IMG/VR virus record: IMGVR_UViG_3300011626_000001
Coordinates: 1-42,973 of that record
Strand: one strand, 5' to 3'
Length of the DNA: 42,973 nt
From: a virus
Lineage: Duplodnaviria; Heunggongvirae; Uroviricota; Caudoviricetes
Part shown: piece by piece, positions 27,564 through 39,095 of the stretch
Position numbering within the stretch: the first letter of the stretch is position 1
Layout of the letters: the number at the start of each line of letters is the position of its first letter
Made by a program: the position numbers and the translations under genes
The notes under the pieces: generated by a model
Database searches by the model: none
What the model saw: only the letters and a program-made list of their open reading frames with translations
Told to the model about the DNA's origin: nothing

Positions 27564-28168
27564 GCTGCTTCGCTCCTCTGCTTAATCAGCTCTCTGGTTT
27601 TCTGCCGGTAGTGCGCCGCCAGTTCTTGCAACTCTTCCCGCGTCCACTTCTTCACCGGATGCGGCCCCATGAGGCGATCGAAAGCAGCCTGCCCGATTTT
27701 CTTAATCAGGTTTGGCGTGTAGTTTTCGATGTTGCCGGAGAGGTGCTGGTTACACGGAACGCATTGTTTATGGCAGTTGGTTTCGTCGTAACGCGTGGCC
27801 GGTGATGCGCCGCGAGTGCGGTAGTGCCCGGCATCATATTTCCCTTCATGGAAGCGCCCGCAGCTGATGCAAGGCGCTTCTGCGTCGCGGGTGCGGATAT
27901 ATTCGTTGAAGGCGGACTGGGCTTGCTTATGGAAGTAACTGAGGGGCTGTACTGCTAACTTGCGGATTTTGGTGTGGCGTTTTTCCTGCTGGGTTTCTTC
28001 TCTTCGTCGTCGTTCTGCTTCCTGTTTCGCTTTCTGCCGGTCTTTCTCCCTCTTAGCCAGTGCGATTGCCGTCCCACACTCTGCGCTGCACCACTGCTGA
28101 TTTTGAAAGGCAGGATTAAACCATTCGCGGCAGTCAGGGTTTTTACAGCGGCGTCTGATTTTTCTCAT
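27560..28168 (-). CDS. ninG: NinG/Rap-like recombination nuclease
   Basis: Basic Cys-rich N-terminus (CKNPDCREWF...CSAECG) and HxxR/Cys-rich C-terminal region typical of NinG; position before Q. Confidence 0.65.
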   Translation of the reverse strand: MRKIRRRCKNPDCREWFNPAFQNQQWCSAECGTAIALAKREKDRQKAKQEAERRRREETQQEKRHTKIRKLAVQPLSYFHKQAQSAFNEYIRTRDAEAPCISCGRFHEGKYDAGHYRTRGASPATRYDETNCHKQCVPCNQHLSGNIENYTPNLIKKIGQAAFDRLMGPHPVKKWTREELQELAAHYRQKTRELIKQRSEAA

Positions 28169-29807: not shown

Positions 29808-30524
29808 TCATGACCCTCTCCCTTTCCTGACCAGTGCTTTCAGCCGGGCAACGTTGTCCAGGGCCTTTTCACTGGCTGTAGGCATGTAGAGCTTTTCCAG
29901 CTGCGCGCGAGGTGGGGGAATTTCTTCGCCAGACTCGATGCGCGACGCCATTTTGCGAAGCTCGGCGCGGCATTTTGCTCGCAGCTCAGGCTCGGTGAGG
30001 TTGTTGGCGCGCATGGTGCTGTACAGGCCGGTGACCATCCAGTATGCCGCGTTGCTTTCCCACGGATACGCCTCAGGGCTGTCTATCAGACCGCGGCGGG
30101 CGGAGTACTTCATCACCATGTCATACAGACCGTCTTCGTCCGGCAGACCAGCGGAGCGGAGTTCGCCCTGCTTGCACCACCCGATAAATTGTCCAGGCGA
30201 TGGCCAGAACGGTGAGGTACTGGCGCGGGCGTGCTTCATGCCGGCCGACAGCTGCTGCTTCGTGCTGATGTCGTTTTCGGCGAAGGCGGCGATCCACTGA
30301 CGCTTGGCTGAGGCTTCGTCGCGCGGGTCTTTAAGCGCGGTGCTGACCGATGCGGGAAAAACCTGCTTCAGGCTCATGAACAGCATGTCGACCAGACGCT
30401 CAACGGTTTCGTTGACGCCACGATCTACCGGCTGAGGGCCGTCACCAGCCATGCGGGCCAGCGCGCTGCTGTCGCGGTTGTTTATTGCGGCTACGAGATT
30501 TCTCATATGAAATTTTCCTCCCAC
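29808..30524 (-). CDS. P: Replication protein P (helicase loader, lambda P-like)
   Basis: PFWPSPGQFIGWCKQ and YPWESNAAYWMVTGLYSTMRANNLTEPELRAKC closely match lambda P as I recall it. Confidence 0.85.
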   Translation of the reverse strand: MGGKFHMRNLVAAINNRDSSALARMAGDGPQPVDRGVNETVERLVDMLFMSLKQVFPASVSTALKDPRDEASAKRQWIAAFAENDISTKQQLSAGMKHARASTSPFWPSPGQFIGWCKQGELRSAGLPDEDGLYDMVMKYSARRGLIDSPEAYPWESNAAYWMVTGLYSTMRANNLTEPELRAKCRAELRKMASRIESGEEIPPPRAQLEKLYMPTASEKALDNVARLKALVRKGRGS

Positions 30525-31426
30525 TCTCTGCGGTCGTTCCAGTGTGGAACCTGCTGCTGTGAACTGGATTGCGCGTTGCGAGCCGGCTGGCTCATCTGCG
30601 CTTTAAGGGTCGCCCACTGCTTTCGCAGCTTCGAAGGGCTGAGGATGTTTGTCTGCCAAAACTGATTGCCGTTCGCCCAGGTGAAGACTTCGCAGATTTC
30701 CCGGTGGCTGACCTTCAGGGAATCGCGCATCAGGCGAATGTCGTTTGCCCAGGCGGGCCAGTTGGGTTGCTGGGCTGTCGGGGTGATCACCTGAACCCGG
30801 CTGAATATCCACTGAGCGGCCAGAAGGTCGTCAGCGGTTCCCCACTTATCGCCCTTCGGTGAATGAACCGCTGCATCAGGCCGGACAACAGGAAGACTTT
30901 TCAGACGCTCGTCAGAGGATTCGCCAGAATTCTCGGACGTATGTTTAATGTCTTTTTTGTCTTTTGTAATAGTGTCTTTTGTGTGTCCCTGTTTTGGTGA
31001 CAACCCTGTCACCGTTTTGGTGACACTTTTTGTCACTGTTTTGGTGACAGTGACACCGTCTTGGTGACACTCTGGAATTTGCCACTCAGCGAGGTTCTTA
31101 TTAGGCCCGATTAGCATGCCTTCCCGGACCAAAACCCCCATCTGAATAAGCTCGTTTTTCGCCTTGTTCACCTTTTGCCGCGGCAGTCTGGTGAGCTGGC
31201 TTATCTGGCTGTCAGCAATGCGATCCATCTTTTTGTTGAAGCCGTATGTTTTCCGGCAAACAGCATGCGCAACCTTCGCCTGGTTCCTGGTCAGGTTGGC
31301 CCCTATCAGCTCTTCGTACAGCTCGTTTGCCAGACGCGTATATCCGTCGTCTGTGTCTGCCACACGTTGCTCCACGGCCCGGAGTTCGGGCCTGATTGGT
31401 GTTACATTGTCATAAGCCAGATTCAT
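30503..31426 (-). CDS. O: Replication initiator O-like protein containing the origin iterons
   Basis: N-terminal LTRNQAKVAHAVCRKTYGFNKK resembles the O N-terminal domain; the central repeat VTVTKTVTKSVTKTVT is encoded by DNA iterons. Confidence 0.8.
   Translation of the reverse strand: MNLAYDNVTPIRPELRAVEQRVADTDDGYTRLANELYEELIGANLTRNQAKVAHAVCRKTYGFNKKMDRIADSQISQLTRLPRQKVNKAKNELIQMGVLVREGMLIGPNKNLAEWQIPECHQDGVTVTKTVTKSVTKTVTGLSPKQGHTKDTITKDKKDIKHTSENSGESSDERLKSLPVVRPDAAVHSPKGDKWGTADDLLAAQWIFSRVQVITPTAQQPNWPAWANDIRLMRDSLKVSHREICEVFTWANGNQFWQTNILSPSKLRKQWATLKAQMSQPARNAQSSSQQQVPHWNDRREWEENFI
30989..31075. repeat. Origin of replication: four or more iterons (core TTGGTGACA) followed on the minus strand by an AT-rich tract
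   Basis: Direct and inverted copies of GTTTTGGTGACA read within the O coding region; adjacent TGTCTTTT repeats. Confidence 0.7.
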
Positions 31427-32283: not shown

Positions 32284-32574
32284 TCAGGCTTCGAAGCTGT
32301 TAGCGCAGCTCGGAGCCTTTTCTTTTCCCAGAATCAGGGCCACTTCCTTCGCTACAGCTTTAGCCAGCTGCGCAGCATCGTCATCAACGATCCCGTATTC
32401 GAGGATGTCTATAGCCATGCTCATCTGGCGGAAAAAGTTCTTCTTCATGCGGCTGACCTGGTATTCAGCGATCCCCAGTTTTTCTGCGAATGTTTTCTGG
32501 CTGATAGATGCCAGCTTGTTCAGCAAGGCCGATTCGATGCGGCGCGCGTTCTTGCTTTGAGTTGCATGTTCCAT
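32284..32574 (-). CDS. cII: Transcriptional activator CII
   Basis: RIESALLNKLA and GIVDDDAAQLAKAVA match lambda CII; position after cro and nutR. Confidence 0.85.
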   Translation of the reverse strand: MEHATQSKNARRIESALLNKLASISQKTFAEKLGIAEYQVSRMKKNFFRQMSMAIDILEYGIVDDDAAQLAKAVAKEVALILGKEKAPSCANSFEA

Positions 32575-32688: not shown

Positions 32689-32904
32689 TCAGGCGGCGGT
32701 ATCGACGCCATTTCCGTATTGCAGCCAGACAGGGTCACATTGCAGAGCTACAGCTATTTCGAAGATCTTCCGTGGGCGCTTCGTGATACCAGCCTCAATC
32801 TGTTGGATTGATTGCTGCTTCACACCTGCCTTAAGCGCCAATTCGGTCTGAGTCATCTTCAGCTCTGCACGTTTCTGCTTGAGGCGCTGGGAGATAGTTT
32901 GCAT
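32689..32904 (-). CDS. cro: Cro-like repressor (71 aa, HTH)
   Basis: Internal start [10 protein letters not shown] preceded by [30 protein letters not shown]; divergent from cI. Confidence 0.7.
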
Positions 32905-33004: not shown

Positions 33005-33646
33005 ATGACAATTGCGGCAAGGGTGCTTTCAAAAAGGACTGAGCTGGGTTTGACTCAGACAGAGCTAGCGGAAAAGGCCGGCACAACGCAGCAGGCGATT
33101 GTCCAGCTTGAGAGCGGTAAAACTAAAAGACCAAGATATCTGCCTGAGCTGGCTAAGGCGTTAAATTGCGACATCCAATGGCTTCTTGATGGATCAGGGG
33201 CAACCTTAGACAGCAATGTGTCTAACCCTAGGGACTACAAGCCGACTGCGCGCTACCCCGTTTTAAGCAAGGTTCAGGCTGGCGCATGGGATGAAGCCTG
33301 TGAACCCTATACGATTAAGGATGTCGATATGTGGCTTGAATCTGACGCACATACGCAAGGAGAGGCTTTCTGGTTGCAGGTGGAAGGCGATTCGATGACT
33401 GCCCCGATTGGCCTCAGTATTCCGGCAGGTACGTTCGTACTGTTCGACACCGGCCGTGAGGCGGTCAATGGAAGCCTGGTCGTGGCAAAGCTTACTGACG
33501 ACAATGAAGCCACATTCAAGAAGCTCATTATCGACGGCAGTCAAAAGTATCTTAAGGGCCTGAACCCTCAATGGCCGATGGTCCCGGTTAACGGGAATTG
33601 CAAGGTTCTTGGCGTGGCGATCGAGACGAAGATGAAGCTCGTTTAA
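33005..33646 (+). CDS. cI: CI-type prophage repressor (HTH + LexA-like S24 autopeptidase domain)
   Basis: N-terminal HTH; C-terminal GDSM serine motif and downstream Lys ([10 protein letters not shown]). Confidence 0.85.
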
Positions 33647-33690
33647 GGCTCAGTGGCCGGAAGAGACTTTCAGCTAATCAGGAGGATGGC

Positions 33691-33849
33691 ATGTCAGTTT
33701 TTGCGAAGATAGCGATTCCGATGTTCTGTATTGCGTTCGCGATGTTCTACCTGGCTCGCAAGAAGCGTGACAAAAACTACCTGATTCCTGGCTTTGTTCT
33801 GTTAGCTGCTGGAGTTGTGAATACGGTGATTGCGATTACTGCAGGTTAG
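33691..33849 (+). CDS. Small two-TM membrane protein (52 aa) cotranscribed with cI
   Basis: AGGAGG SD 7 nt before ATG; two hydrophobic helices separated by RKKRDKNY; flanked by a 15-bp direct repeat. Confidence 0.55.
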   Translation: MSVFAKIAIPMFCIAFAMFYLARKKRDKNYLIPGFVLLAAGVVNTVIAITAG

Positions 33850-33966
33850 TGGCCGGAAGAGAGGTTTGGGTAAAGATTTAGCGGTATTAGCCGAAAAGAC
33901 ATATAGCACGAAGCCGACGCAAGAACGGATCGTTTAATCTTTTCAGGGAAATATCAGAGATTAGCT

Positions 33967-34962
33967 ATGGAACAACATGACGTTTTTGTGTACACAGGTG
34001 ATATCCACCGTGATGGTTATCTCGATCTTACTAATGCCATAAAAAAACGCAAAAAAGCTCAAGGACTCAGCACTGAGGTTACTTTTTGTGTCGCCACTTA
34101 TGGCGGAGATCCAAATGCAGGCTATCGTATAGGAAGAGCGCTTCAACATAACTATGAGAAAGTGAATCTTTTAGTAGTGGGCCCCTGTAAGAGTGCCGGG
34201 ACTTTGATAGCGATTGCAGCTGATAAGCTTATCATTGGAGACATGGGTGAGCTTGGCCCCCTTGATATACAGCTTAAAAAAAATGACGAAATTGGCGAGA
34301 TGAGTTCAGGCCTGGTCATAATGACGGCCTTAGATGCGTTAAAAGATCGCTCTATTTCGACGTTCAATTCTCATCTGGTTAAGATAAGATACGAAAACCA
34401 GATAAGTACGAAGATGTCAGCTGACATTGCTGCGAAGTTAACTGAGGCGTTAGTTGCTCCCATGGCTGCTCAGATAGATCCAATTAAACTTGGAGAGCAT
34501 CAACGAGCTATGAGCATTGCCATAACCTATGGGCAGCGACTCAGTGACAAATCTAAGTGTTTGAAGGATGGAGCTTTATTTAAATTAATTGCCTCTTATC
34601 CTTCACATGGTTTTGTGATAGATCGCAAAGAGGCTCGCGAACTTTTTCACCATGTTGAAAGTCCAACTGGTTACGCTGAAGCACTTTACGAGATTTTTTA
34701 TCAAAAAATTCACGAGGGTGAAATTCAACCTTACGGTAAACCGAAGGTGCTCGATTTCACTATCGATCCTGAAACAACTGAGAATAATGGAGATGCCAAT
34801 GCACAATCACCCGGAGATGGAGGTACTGAACAAGATGATTCAGGACCAAATCCAGGAGAGTCAAGATCTGGCAAAGCGAGCAGAGCAAAATCTAAACGAT
34901 CTGAAGCGTCAACTGGAGCCCTACCAGTTCAGCAGCCCAATGACATACCGCCTCCAGAGTGA
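33967..34962 (+). CDS. ClpP/S49-fold (SDH-type) serine peptidase-like protein with charged low-complexity C-terminal tail (331 aa)
   Basis: Segment GPCKSAGTLIAIAADKLIIGDMGELGPLDIQ resembles the Ser-containing core of ClpP/SppA-fold peptidases; no signal peptide; AT-rich gene. Confidence 0.55.
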   Translation: MEQHDVFVYTGDIHRDGYLDLTNAIKKRKKAQGLSTEVTFCVATYGGDPNAGYRIGRALQHNYEKVNLLVVGPCKSAGTLIAIAADKLIIGDMGELGPLDIQLKKNDEIGEMSSGLVIMTALDALKDRSISTFNSHLVKIRYENQISTKMSADIAAKLTEALVAPMAAQIDPIKLGEHQRAMSIAITYGQRLSDKSKCLKDGALFKLIASYPSHGFVIDRKEARELFHHVESPTGYAEALYEIFYQKIHEGEIQPYGKPKVLDFTIDPETTENNGDANAQSPGDGGTEQDDSGPNPGESRSGKASRAKSKRSEASTGALPVQQPNDIPPPE

Positions 34963-34984
34963 TCTCTCACCATTTTAAGTAAAG

Positions 34985-35008
34985 CCCGGCCACCGCGCCG
35001 GGTTTTTT
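34985..35008 (+). terminator. Rho-independent terminator (CCCGGC-CACCGC-GCCGGG + T6) ending the cI cargo operon
   Basis: Hairpin and T-run read directly, 23 nt after the peptidase-like stop. Confidence 0.6.
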
Positions 35009-35144
35009 ATACCCGCCACACCAATAGCCCGCCATTGAGCTGGCTTTTTCATGCTGCTCTAAAGTTATCAGTTATGCTGCCGTTAACCTCTTTGCTCTGG
35101 AAAACAGTAGTACCAATAACGACAATATGAAATCAAGCCGGTTG

Positions 35145-35168
35145 GCCCGCTATGCGCGGGCTTTTTTT
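35145..35168 (+). terminator. Terminator hairpin GCCCGC-TATGC-GCGGGC + T7
   Basis: Read directly; member of a repeated hairpin family. Confidence 0.5.
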
Positions 35169-35312
35169 CTTTCAATACATAAACTAACGTTATCCTGACG
35201 AGTAAAATTACTACGCTATATTTCACAGCAACGTAGCGGCAGTAGCCTATGCTTTGAAAGCACATTATTTGCTGTGTGCGATGGCTTTCCCCATTGGAAT
35301 TTGTGTCTTCTT

Positions 35313-35336
35313 GCCCGCCATAGAGCGGGCTTTTTT
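35313..35336 (+). terminator. Terminator hairpin GCCCGC-CATAGA-GCGGGC + T6
   Basis: Read directly; member of a repeated hairpin family. Confidence 0.5.
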
Positions 35337-35500
35337 AAGCCAACTCCCGCTGCCCAGAACAATCCTAACTTCATGACTTGTAGGACCATTCCCACATCGC
35401 AAGAACTCACACACTCCTAACCTTTAATGGCTACACGCATACAGGATGTTGCGCGTTAGCTGTACGAGATTTGCAGGTTAACCCTGTGCTGAATCACTTT

Positions 35501-35524
35501 GCCCGCCACTGAGCGGGCTTTTTT
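35501..35524 (+). terminator. Terminator hairpin GCCCGC-CACTGA-GCGGGC + T6
   Basis: Read directly; member of a repeated hairpin family. Confidence 0.5.
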
Positions 35525-35559
35525 GTGCCTGCAGATCCCACTTCGTAAAAATAAATCAC

Positions 35560-35919: not shown

Positions 35920-36168
35920 ATGTTTGCAGCTACCAACAGCGTCAGCCGTCGCTACCTCAAGCGTGGCGAACTGATCGCAAAACGCCGTGCAGAAGCGGCA
36001 GAAGGTAAAGCCCGCGTTGATGTCAGTGCTGAGCGAGTTTCACGCGCTGTATCTGCACCGAGCCTTCGCGAAAAGCACGAAGATGGCGCCATGTGCCTGC
36101 CCGCCATAGCGATTTACAGCGCCGGGCATCGCAAGGTTCGCAAAGACGCGACGCACATCGTTAAATAA
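35920..36168 (+). CDS. N: Antitermination protein N (P22 gp24-like, 82 aa)
   Basis: N-terminal arginine-rich motif; C-terminal LPAIAIYSAGHRKVRK resembles the P22 gene 24 C-terminus as I recall it; GGAGG SD; downstream of nutL. Confidence 0.7.
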   Translation: MFAATNSVSRRYLKRGELIAKRRAEAAEGKARVDVSAERVSRAVSAPSLREKHEDGAMCLPAIAIYSAGHRKVRKDATHIVK

Positions 36169-37066: not shown

Positions 37067-37372
37067 CTTTCATGGCGAGCAAAACAGGAAGTCGAAGAGA
37101 TTATGAAAAACCTCTCTGAGACCGATTTAGAGCGCATCGGCGATGAAGTCGACGCAATGATGGACCAGCACAAGATTAACCCGCTGATGACGGCGCTGTG
37201 TGCGTTTCTGCCGAAACATTTCGATTATCCCGCTGCCGAGCTGGTCGACCAAGACGACGAGCAGTACGAAGCCGCCGAAAACTTCCTGCGCGATGCGCTG
37301 GTGAAAGTCGCTAAGCGGGACATGGCGATCGCCATCTGGAAAAGCAGACACAGCTTCGATGAGGTGGCGTGA
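37061..37372 (+). CDS. Hypothetical acidic early protein (about 103 aa)
   Basis: ORF in track; start probably the GTG overlapping the upstream stop; stop overlaps the exonuclease start. Confidence 0.4.
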   Translation: MKLSWRAKQEVEEIMKNLSETDLERIGDEVDAMMDQHKINPLMTALCAFLPKHFDYPAAELVDQDDEQYEAAENFLRDALVKVAKRDMAIAIWKSRHSFDEVA

Positions 37373-38190
37373 TGGAGCCCGGCATCTATTACGACATCAG
37401 CAACGAGTCGTACCACAGCGGCCCCGGCATCAGCAAATCGCAGCTGGACGACATCGCTATAAACCCGGCCATCTTCCAGTGGCGCAAAGAAGCGCCCGAG
37501 GACGAAGAGAAAAAAGCTGCGCTGGATATGGGCACCGCCCTGCACTGCCTGCTGCTGGAGCCCGAAGAATTCGATAACCGCTTCATCGTGGCGCCAGAAT
37601 TCAACCGGCGCACCAACGAGGGAAAGGCGAACGAGAAAGCTTTTCTGAAAGACTGCGCCGGGCTGGGCATGACTGTGATGGACGCCGAGGAAGGTCGCAA
37701 ACTGAAGCTTATGCGCGCCAGCGCCCTCGCCCATCCGGCCGCGCGCTGGCTGCTGGAAGCTGAAGGCCATCAGGAAGCATCAATCTACTGGAACGACGAG
37801 CAGACCGGCGAGCTTTGCCGGATCCGGCCAGACAAGTTCCTGTCCGGCCAGCCTGTCATCGTCGACGTGAAAAAAGTGGCTGATATGTCCCGCTTTGCCC
37901 GCCACGTCGAAGAGTTCCGCTATCACGTTCAGGACGCCTACTACCGCGAGGGCTTCAGTAAGCACTTCGGCGAGTACCCGCTTTTCGTGTTCATCGCCGT
38001 CAGCGAGTCGATCGACTGCGGCCGCTATCCGGTGCGCACCTTCCAGCTTCAGGAGGACGATGTTGCCGTCGGCTATGACCTGTTCCGCCGCGACCTGACC
38101 ACCTATCACGAATGCATGCTTACCGGTAACTGGGGCGGCATTGAAGAAATCACGCGCCCGGACTGGGCCAAAAGGAAGGATTACGCATGA
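37369..38190 (+). CDS. Recombination exonuclease (RecE/YqaJ-type PD-(D/E)XK nuclease)
   Basis: IYYDISNESYHSGPGISKSQLDDI N-terminus and IVDVKK motif typical of phage RecE-like exonucleases; coupled to the RecT-like gene. Confidence 0.6.
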   Translation: MMEPGIYYDISNESYHSGPGISKSQLDDIAINPAIFQWRKEAPEDEEKKAALDMGTALHCLLLEPEEFDNRFIVAPEFNRRTNEGKANEKAFLKDCAGLGMTVMDAEEGRKLKLMRASALAHPAARWLLEAEGHQEASIYWNDEQTGELCRIRPDKFLSGQPVIVDVKKVADMSRFARHVEEFRYHVQDAYYREGFSKHFGEYPLFVFIAVSESIDCGRYPVRTFQLQEDDVAVGYDLFRRDLTTYHECMLTGNWGGIEEITRPDWAKRKDYA

Positions 38191-39095
38191 GCAACGAAAT
38201 TACGCACGCGCCGGTCAACGAGGCCGACACCAAAGCGGCAATCTTCAGCCCGAGCGGTCTGCAAAAGTTACAGGCTTTCGCCAAAGTCATGGCTGAAGGT
38301 CGTGCAACAGTGCCAGCCCACCTGGCAGGTAAACCTGCTGATTGCCTGGCAATTGCGTTACAGGCGGCCCAGTGGGGAATGAATCCATATGCGGTGGCGC
38401 AAAAAACGCATCTCGTTAACGGAACGCTGGGCTATGAGGCGCAACTGGTTAATGCAGTCATCACCAGTTCAACAGCCGTTCAGGGGCGTTTTAAATACGA
38501 ATACGGCGGCGACTGGGGGAAATTCAAGCCTGGTGCAGCTAATGCGGCCAACGAGCGCGGCCTGTTTGTTCGTGTCGGCGCAGTGCTGCGCGGCGAAACG
38601 GAAATCACCTGGGGCGAACCGCTATTTATGGAGTACGTCACTACGCGTAACTCTCCGCTCTGGAAGACGGCGCCGAAGCAGCAACTGGCTTATCTGGCCG
38701 TCAAATACTGGGCGCGACTTTACTGCCCTGATGTGATTCTCGGCGTTTACACCCCGGATGAGTTCGAACCGGCGCAGCGCGCGGAACGCGACGTCACCCC
38801 GGCGCGCAGCCGGGCAGACCTGAACAACCTGATCAACAGCAAGCCCGAAACGCAGCAGCCCGAGCGCGAAATTAACCCGGCGACGAACACCAGTGCACCA
38901 GCGCGCACGCCGGACGAGTTGCTTGCCGATTTCACCACCGCTGCAGCTGAAGCGGAAAACGTTGCCGGTCTGGACCGCTGCTACAAATACGCGGCACGCA
39001 TGCTGGCGAATGAGGCTGACACGCTCGAAAAAGCCACCGATGTTTACCTGCTTCGCAAAGCAGAGCTGGACGAGGACGGGGCCGCCAATGCGTAA
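38187..39095 (+). CDS. recT: RecT-family single-strand annealing protein
   Basis: Follows the exonuclease with overlapping start; sequence features consistent with RecT family; paired exo/annealase architecture. Confidence 0.65.
   Translation: MSNEITHAPVNEADTKAAIFSPSGLQKLQAFAKVMAEGRATVPAHLAGKPADCLAIALQAAQWGMNPYAVAQKTHLVNGTLGYEAQLVNAVITSSTAVQGRFKYEYGGDWGKFKPGAANAANERGLFVRVGAVLRGETEITWGEPLFMEYVTTRNSPLWKTAPKQQLAYLAVKYWARLYCPDVILGVYTPDEFEPAQRAERDVTPARSRADLNNLINSKPETQQPEREINPATNTSAPARTPDELLADFTTAAAEAENVAGLDRCYKYAARMLANEADTLEKATDVYLLRKAELDEDGAANA

Follow-up and report, generated by a model that had tools for sequence, protein, structure and literature searches.

A short direct repeat bracketing a small gene downstream of cI, read as a relic of lambda-type repressor 3' ends at the edge of the cI–N accessory interval

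The immunity region of a tailed phage (Caudoviricetes; IMG/VR record IMGVR_UViG_3300011626_000001, positions 1 to 42,973, referred to here as the window) carries a short direct repeat directly behind two successive stop codons, which raises the question of what this sequence is, and how two copies came to enclose a gene of only 52 codons. The two genes concerned are a cI-type repressor of 213 amino acids (aa) with HTH_3 and Peptidase_S24 domains (33005–33646, plus strand), and a small gene for a 52-aa protein with two hydrophobic segments, MSVFAKIAIPMFCIAFAMFYLARKKRDKNYLIPGFVLLAAGVVNTVIAITAG (33691–33849, plus strand). An exact search of the window agrees with the original prediction that the 15-mer AGTGGCCGGAAGAGA occurs at 33652–33666 and at 33848–33862, both on the plus strand, and the gene context is likewise as proposed, the copies bracketing the small gene right after the stops of cI and of the small gene itself. 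The first copy starts 5 nucleotides (nt) past the cI stop, and the second starts with the AG of the small gene's TAG (33847–33849), so that the copies are 196 nt apart with 181 nt between them. No further match exists in the window, even with two mismatches tolerated, and the 15-mer is the sole exact direct repeat of its length spaced by 300 nt or less in these 42,973 nt. None of 100 dinucleotide shuffles gave two matches, and any such 15-mer pair within 300 nt was seen in 6 of 300 first-order Markov simulations; together with the conservation in relatives described below, this rules out a chance repeat. The predicted length of 15 bp turned out to be an underestimate, since similarity between the copies continues in register over 26–27 nt (33652–33677 against 33848–33873, 81% identity), and a TAA closes both of them. 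The ends of the small-gene cassette carry no inverted repeats.

The extended repeat resembles the end of a repressor gene. The last nine codons of lambda cI read CAG TGG CCT GAA GAG ACG TTT GGC TGA, corresponding to QWPEETFG-stop. Copy 1 together with its flank (33647–33677, plus strand) reads GGCT CAG TGG CCG GAA GAG ACT TTC AGC TAA, which in the +1 frame relative to cI would give (FKA)QWPEETFS-stop. Copy 2 (33847–33873, plus strand) reads TAG TGG CCG GAA GAG AGG TTT GGG TAA, or stop-WPEERFG-stop, with the first codon doubling as the stop of the small gene. A four-way alignment of both copies with the cI ends of lambda and of Erwinia phage Midgardsormr38 yields the common sequence (C/T)AGTGGCC(G/T)GAAGA(G/T)A..TT...T(A/G)A, within which AGTGGCC.GAAGA.A..TT is invariant. 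Because of this invariant core and the stop codons in register, the copies can be assigned to the 3'-terminal segment of a lambda-type repressor gene, and we read both as remnants of its last ~27 nt (QWPEETF[G/S]-stop), hereafter called the tail. The original prediction, correct on the position of the repeat and on its bracketing of the small gene, missed this identity as a coding segment from the 3' end of cI. No mention of QWPEETFG was found in the literature searched.

The lambda cI 3' end and the window repeat are alike in sequence, sharing 14 of 15 core bases as well as the register of the stop codon, and they occupy the same place, i.e., the end of the repressor gene and the start of an accessory slot that in lambda holds rexAB. 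The lambda end is translated and single, whereas the window has two untranslated copies with a gene between them. The copies are not translated as the end of cI here because cI has its own stop 5 nt upstream of copy 1; the protein ends …AIETKMKLV, followed by TAA at 33644–33646. Copy 1 lies outside the cI reading frame, and the Peptidase_S24 domain is full (profile positions 1–116 of 116) with the tail excluded, so that both copies appear to be untranslated relics. In its C-terminal half, the gene has ~74% DNA identity to cI of the lambda/HK620 type. A reading in which one extra T created the cI stop (frameshift GTT-T-AAGGCT) was rejected in favour of a native stop followed by a relic, since such cI alleles use TAA, TAG or TGA at this point, with relics of different length after it.

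The original prediction offered two explanations, of which one was that the small gene had been inserted as a unit and the repeat is the recombination scar; a relative without the small gene was to be inspected for a single copy at the empty junction. Such a relative, here designated L026, was found by searching phage contigs for the gene that lies downstream in the window, which encodes a ClpP-like serine protease homologue of SDH type (33967–34962, plus strand, 331 aa) behind a leader (33874–33966, plus strand) that forms one module with tail copy 2. The S24 repressor of L026 differs from that of the window and has a single tail as its in-frame end. No small gene is present, and immediately after the tail come the leader known from the window and a protease gene with 95% protein identity to that of the window. 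The homology between the window and L026 begins exactly at the AGTGGCC of copy 2; it amounts to ~88% identity over 33848–33969, running on into the protease gene, and to 982 of 1116 identical positions over 33847–34962. Judged by its sequence, L026 is the predicted empty site. Midgardsormr38 provides another single-copy junction, where a cI ending of the window type precedes one untranslated tail, and the gene after it is unrelated. The variant of the stop appears to move with the cargo, in that FG-TAA of copy 2 matches other protease loci, where TAA goes with the protease leader. Insertion as a unit is thus essentially right, given the single copies in L026 and Midgardsormr38.

The same conclusion is backed by relatives of the small gene in Pantoea, where loci from several branches of the family were compared on both sides of the gene: the unit composed of tail, small gene and tail is conserved while both flanks change. 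Copy 1 lies directly upstream of the small gene in every family member compared. It is in frame and forms the C-terminus of the repressor in L010/11, L012, L017, L022/23 and L024/25, where a repressor with HTH and S24 domains ends in (S/C)-stop 9–13 nt before the small-gene ATG. It is intact and untranslated in the window and in L015, and its 5' half has decayed in L009, L013, L016, L018 and L060. The FS-stop variant of copy 1 and the adjoining Shine-Dalgarno (SD) sequence accompany the small gene in most loci. Copy 2 follows the small-gene stop in most loci, but is decayed in L013, L016 and L022, truncated in L014 and L017, and absent from L024/25. At least nine different downstream sequences start right after the stop of tail 2 in these Pantoea loci, and different genes follow. 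Mean pairwise identities by region among 12 distinct loci are 86% for codon positions 1 and 2 of the small gene, 59–61% for position 3, 72% for copy 2 (81% when the two loci without copy 2 are left out), and 26%, which is the random level, for the 27 nt beyond copy 2. The small gene also occurs in a different setting in L018–L021 (Pantoea, e.g., GCA_024520845.1), among the non-phage genes DUF333, nitroreductase and MFS transporter, where it is preceded by a decayed cI end and copy 1 and followed by a good copy 2; the locus looks like a stranded piece of a prophage immunity region.

The bracketed gene itself is real, as judged from a median ratio of nonsynonymous to synonymous divergence (dN/dS) of ~0.12, at a mean synonymous difference (pS) of 0.57 and a mean nonsynonymous difference (pN) of 0.13. 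It has an AGGAGG SD sequence (33680–33685, plus strand) 5 nt 5' of the ATG, and the block TAA-(TC)-AGGAG-N-TGGC-ATG is kept in all family members. The protein family comprises 33 clusters with 71–96% identity, and all named clusters are from Pantoea; the five loci that representative genomes yielded likewise all belong to Pantoea species. No Pfam, PHROG or PADLOC family could be assigned, with sub-threshold matches only in Pfam and PHROGs and zero in PADLOC. A blastn search of E. coli genomes returned no relatives of the gene, and in a search of a cultured-phage collection cI was matched and the small gene was not. An unannotated open reading frame (ORF) of 51 aa with two hydrophobic segments (MNTFSIIAIPFFALSVVLL...) is present in phage HK97 (L003 1501–1656; record 28006–28161, minus strand), and HK225 carries a matching ORF (L004 1501–1656), where the annotation calls an ORF on the opposite strand. 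The HK97/HK225 ORF is located 77 nt past cI and its tail, on the same strand, and has no second tail. It is a probable remote homologue of the window small gene (32% identity, hhalign probability 94%). A further probable remote homologue of both the Pantoea and the HK97 proteins is a tail-bracketed 50-aa ORF in L182, again with two hydrophobic segments (hhalign probability 86%).

Beyond these relatives, an exact 20-nt tail pattern retrieved at least 121 matches in at least 120 contigs of IMG/VR. Among the 121 matches listed, the tail shares the frame of a long ORF in 73 and is an untranslated relic in 47. Where enough flanking sequence was available (119 listed occurrences), 43 distinct downstream sequences were counted, all of them diverging from the stop codon on, against 19 upstream contexts; several of the 43 sequences are terminators and not genes. 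Repressor ends are also found stacked. In HK225, the HK97 tail persists as a relic behind an unrelated repressor, and in one genome a third repressor type is followed by a relic of a 21-type repressor end and then by a lambda-type tail. In lambda (L002 1696–1728, minus strand), the first 33 nt of the spacer between cI and rexA read IGKVFWSAHS-stop, matching the C-terminus RIIGRVFWSSHSW of a different repressor type in L079/L113, and lambda itself thus carries what is left of the 3' end of another repressor gene. The sequence that follows repressor genes can accordingly be read as a layered record of repressor 3' ends. A separate observation concerns an S24 repressor type that ends in ...EHRIYRRKR-stop and contains TCGCCGGAAGAGATAG (L081, L087, L093, L132, L142, L159 and L177), which looks like the tail read in a shifted frame; 48 nt downstream of this end there is a 20-codon cI-end relic that includes a second tail.

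Pairs of tails were sought by scanning all of IMG/VR for tails 20–200 nt apart, together with the sample of exact tails. Other inserts between two tails measure 70, 75, 113, 133 and 172 nt. The 75-nt and 113-nt inserts hold hydrophobic candidate ORFs of 23 aa and 32 aa, the 133-nt insert is likewise tail-bracketed, the 70-nt insert is a stack of relics, and L178 has three tails in a row. Units of tail, insert and tail are seen in L178 (~8664–9110), L177, L149/L153, L100/L171–173 and L182. The candidate ORFs have the sequences MKIGYIFPAVCGIAGIALLVWFIASGAWMPGA (32 aa) and MREYLIVGVVTLLSVVAIVLMVA (23 aa), and in L155 the ATG of one copy is gone. Most of the cassettes are predicted to encode hydrophobic peptides of 23–52 aa.

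Two observations that the original prediction had named as speaking against a scar have thus both been made, in that relatives carry the small gene without copy 2, and the sequence is widespread. The scar reading stands nevertheless: wide occurrence does not refute it, since the other occurrences all lie at the equivalent boundary, after a repressor gene or a relic of a repressor end.

Based on these comparisons, we consider it probable that the repeat is a relic of repressor 3' ends that offers a short patch of homology on the left border of the mosaic hotspot between cI and N. The tail forms the true C-terminus of the repressor in many lambdoid prophages, and is the last conserved sequence ahead of the highly variable cI–N slot. 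Copy 1 would travel with the small-gene cassette, as a unit of tail, SD and small gene, and would here be stranded behind a cI allele with its own stop, while copy 2 would be the cI end, now displaced, that originally belonged to the donor genome of the protease gene, so that the repeat would mark two module boundaries. The role of the tail would then be evolutionary, as a patch of 15–27 bp of homology for phage or host recombination. Crossovers presumably within the tail would swap the downstream cargo, and would gain or lose the small-gene cassette. Recombination systems of the RecT/PDDEXK type work with short homologies, and the window contains genes for RecT (38187–39092) and a PDDEXK nuclease (37369–38187). 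The tail has the properties expected of a linker, with unrelated flanks on either side across genomes, and a bracketed unit that some relatives have and others lack, the empty site showing just one copy. Illegitimate or microhomology recombination may have first joined the end of the small gene to a tail. A physiological role of the repeat in the lysogen most likely does not exist; the fact that untranslated copies decay or vanish argues against a required cis function.

Two observations weigh against this explanation. The untranslated tail 2 is more alike among the Pantoea loci (72–81%) than the third codon positions of the small gene (59–61%), and this excess calls for either repeated refreshing by recombination with coding tails or some constraint; we attribute it to the former, in which copy 2 would be repeatedly replaced during cargo exchange with phages that have a coding tail. 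Furthermore, the joints of many unrelated upstream sequences cluster 0–20 nt from the 5' edge of the tail, although this is partly a matter of ascertainment, since the search required an intact tail. Some of the clustering may come from a hotspot mechanism.

The clustering of joints could instead indicate that the tail is a dedicated insertion site, used by mini-circles that integrate in a Campbell-type manner or by an enzyme that cuts the tail, the paired tails being an att-like or target-site duplication and integron-like arrays the outcome. At least six different inserts are exactly bracketed by tails, including the 52-aa Pantoea gene and the 50-aa ORF of L182, the three tails of L178 form an array, and repeat-bracketed ORFs of T4-type phages do form mini-circles (PMC2839356). 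The tail would then be in active use as a docking site, perhaps with the help of an enzyme, where tiny cassettes are captured and stacked as the cI–N slot begins, and as it encodes the repressor's own C-terminus in many genomes, such a site would stay intact. If true, lambdoid prophages would have a micro-cassette system resembling integrons or PeSL cassettes (see below). Neither a recombinase nor a transposase is found in or beside the 181-nt cassette, however, which holds only the 52-aa ORF and lacks terminal inverted repeats. The joints differ by a few nucleotides (TAG|TGGCC, TAG|GCC, TGAG|GCC and ATGG|TGGCC), a duplication of 24–27 bp is much longer than the target duplications made by transposases, and ordinary homologous exchange at a short shared sequence accounts for the same pattern. 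We therefore regard a dedicated site as unlikely, and its use as an active docking site as similarly doubtful. The repeat could also have come about if the cI 3' region had been duplicated in tandem and the small ORF had arisen de novo from the duplicated copy, as the copies adjoin cI and are spaced by 196 nt. This is rejected, because the 181-nt insert does not resemble the 196 nt of cI upstream (local score 8.5, against 9.0 +/- 1.4 for shuffles) and HK97 and L182 carry probable remote homologues of the small protein; duplication, like chance, is hardly credible as a source of the repeat.

The other explanation in the original prediction was a repeated signal for RNA processing or translation, i.e., a cis-acting element on the PRM transcript that serves as processing site, stabiliser, enhancer or coupling element. 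The high similarity of tail 2 relative to neighbouring synonymous sites would fit such a signal, as would the retention of the 3' half of copy 1 (GGAAGA..TT.AGCTAAGGAG) before the small-gene start in loci where the 5' half has decayed. Transcription probably covers both copies, as no terminator lies between cI and the protease gene, and translational coupling is plausible in the in-frame alleles, where the cI stop overlaps the SD of the small gene. Rfam gave no matches at E<=1 over 33400–34100, though, and folds around the copies are no better than those of shuffled sequences (z = +0.50 and −1.60). The 15-mer core is decayed, truncated or missing in relatives that keep the small gene, HK97 has a probable homologous gene without a second copy, and among the matches listed the block trails many unrelated genes and precedes 43 unrelated sequences. 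The scan called neither promoter-like nor terminator-like sites at either copy. A signal of this kind is not borne out by these results, and we consider it improbable. Recoding would assign a role in translation to the repeat in another way, with a +1 frameshift at GTT-TAA-G extending cI by 10 residues, or read-through of the TAG adding WPEERFG to the small protein. Copy 1 is indeed in the +1 frame right after the cI stop, so that one skipped T gives the in-frame sequence of relatives, and copy 2 is in frame 0 past the TAG of the small gene. Among cI alleles with similar ends, the relics are in the +1, +2 or 0 frame and come after TAA, TAG or TGA, and it is this variation in frame and stop codon that makes recoding very improbable. 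In addition, the relic has decayed or contains in-frame stops in L009, L013, L016 and L018, and no slippery or stimulatory element was seen on reading the sequence.

The relic at a mosaic boundary can be compared with several known systems. The interval between cI and N is described as a mosaic hotspot with accessory genes, which are co-transcribed with the repressor (PMC8585504 and PMC7067206, both citing Degnan et al. 2007), and the cargo includes rexAB in lambda, bstA in BTP1, and hex located 3' to the 434 repressor (PMC3564112 for hex). In the window, the small gene and the protease gene fill the same slot, oriented as cI and with no terminator between, and the cargo varies among close relatives of the prophage. 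The three papers describe the hotspot and give no conserved boundary sequence, although one may already be noted by Degnan et al. 2007. What the window adds is a left boundary of the slot that is set to the nucleotide by the cI tail, and that persists behind unrelated repressors. The closest functional analogue is found in the PeSL cassettes of T4-type phages (Arbiol et al. 2010, PMC2839356), where short repeats bracket small non-essential ORFs in arrays, the ORFs are present or absent among relatives, and the repeats are proposed as linkers for homologous recombination. The shared features are repeat-bracketed small ORFs, variable presence and arrays. In contrast, the PeSL repeats are regulatory units of promoter and stem-loop, while the cI tail comes from coding sequence, and a promoter and a significant hairpin are both absent from it. 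The tail is therefore not a member of the PeSL family, and the likeness is one of analogy only.

A layout matching that of the window also arises when an element inserts at the 3' end of a gene, restores that end and is flanked by attL and attR duplications, in that copy 1 would correspond to the site restoring the cI end, and copy 2 to the displaced original end. Such systems differ from the cassette described here, which is only ~180 nt long, has no integrase, and has joints that are not identical among inserts. In the linker model of Susskind and Botstein, interchangeable modules are reportedly separated by short conserved sequences, and boundary sequences are said to have been discussed for HK97/HK022 and HK620. 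Joints in lambdoid phages are mostly regarded as illegitimate and free of linkers. Compared with these usual joints, the tail stands apart in that one sequence of 24–27 nt recurs at one boundary in hundreds of genomes. The repeat is an unusually clear case of ordinary phage mosaicism, a relic and linker at a mosaic junction, and represents neither a new signal nor a new molecular mechanism.

With respect to the surroundings in the window, cro (32689–32904) and cII (32284–32574) lie on the opposite strand to cI and are divergent from it, while the small gene and the protease gene are situated between cI and N in the orientation of cI, with an N-like ORF at 35920–36168. The protease homologue, a cargo gene of the slot, scores slightly under the cut-off of Pfam SDH_protease (E=3.8e-7; 29.9 bits against 31.3 bits). 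It corresponds to phrog_21683 (E=1e-158), listed as function unknown, other PHROG matches being weaker, and PADLOC has no match for it. A 108-aa ORF in another frame (…HPEMEVLNKMIQDQIQESQDLAKRAEQNLN…; 34652–34978, plus strand) is present within the 3' part of the protease gene. Its frame is open and similar in L026 and L028, and the protease frame of the window is of low complexity there, so the ORF could be an overlapping gene or reflect a mis-called gene end. The leader after copy 2 (AAGATTT..GCCGAAA..CACA.AGCACG.., a hairpin, and ..TTT.CAGGG) is kept upstream of protease homologues, even of those that do not adjoin a repressor (L026, L028, L027, L047, L049, L134 and L058 are the loci listed), and its first ~45 nt also occur 5' of two unrelated genes (L134 and L058); the leader (33874–33966) could be a regulatory 5' untranslated region.

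The scan called no terminator-like sites from cI through the stop of the protease gene, and the first such site called on the plus strand is at 35144. A stack of five similar terminator-like hairpins (GCCCGCC....GAGCGGGC and then a T-run), at 34983, 35025, 35142, 35311 and 35499, lies between the protease stop and the pL/N region (34983–35529). They may be small RNA genes, or may have been left by a succession of cargo modules on the right side of the slot. Elsewhere in the window, three to four copies of CTGTTTTGGTGACA with a spacing of ~23 nt (30989–31051) lie inside the O-type replication gene (30503–31426, minus strand), and are presumably origin iterons.

As for the question raised by this locus, the repeat is a readable record of how the immunity region was assembled, with a cI allele, a small-gene cassette and protease cargo joined at copies of a repressor 3' end. 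The same sequence of 24–27 nt marks the left edge of the cI–N hotspot for accessory and defence genes in many enterobacterial prophages. The tail is therefore a practical anchor by which cargo genes expressed from the repressor operon can be located and compared, and it offers a concrete case in which the old idea of short conserved linkers guiding the modular exchange of phage genomes can be tested.

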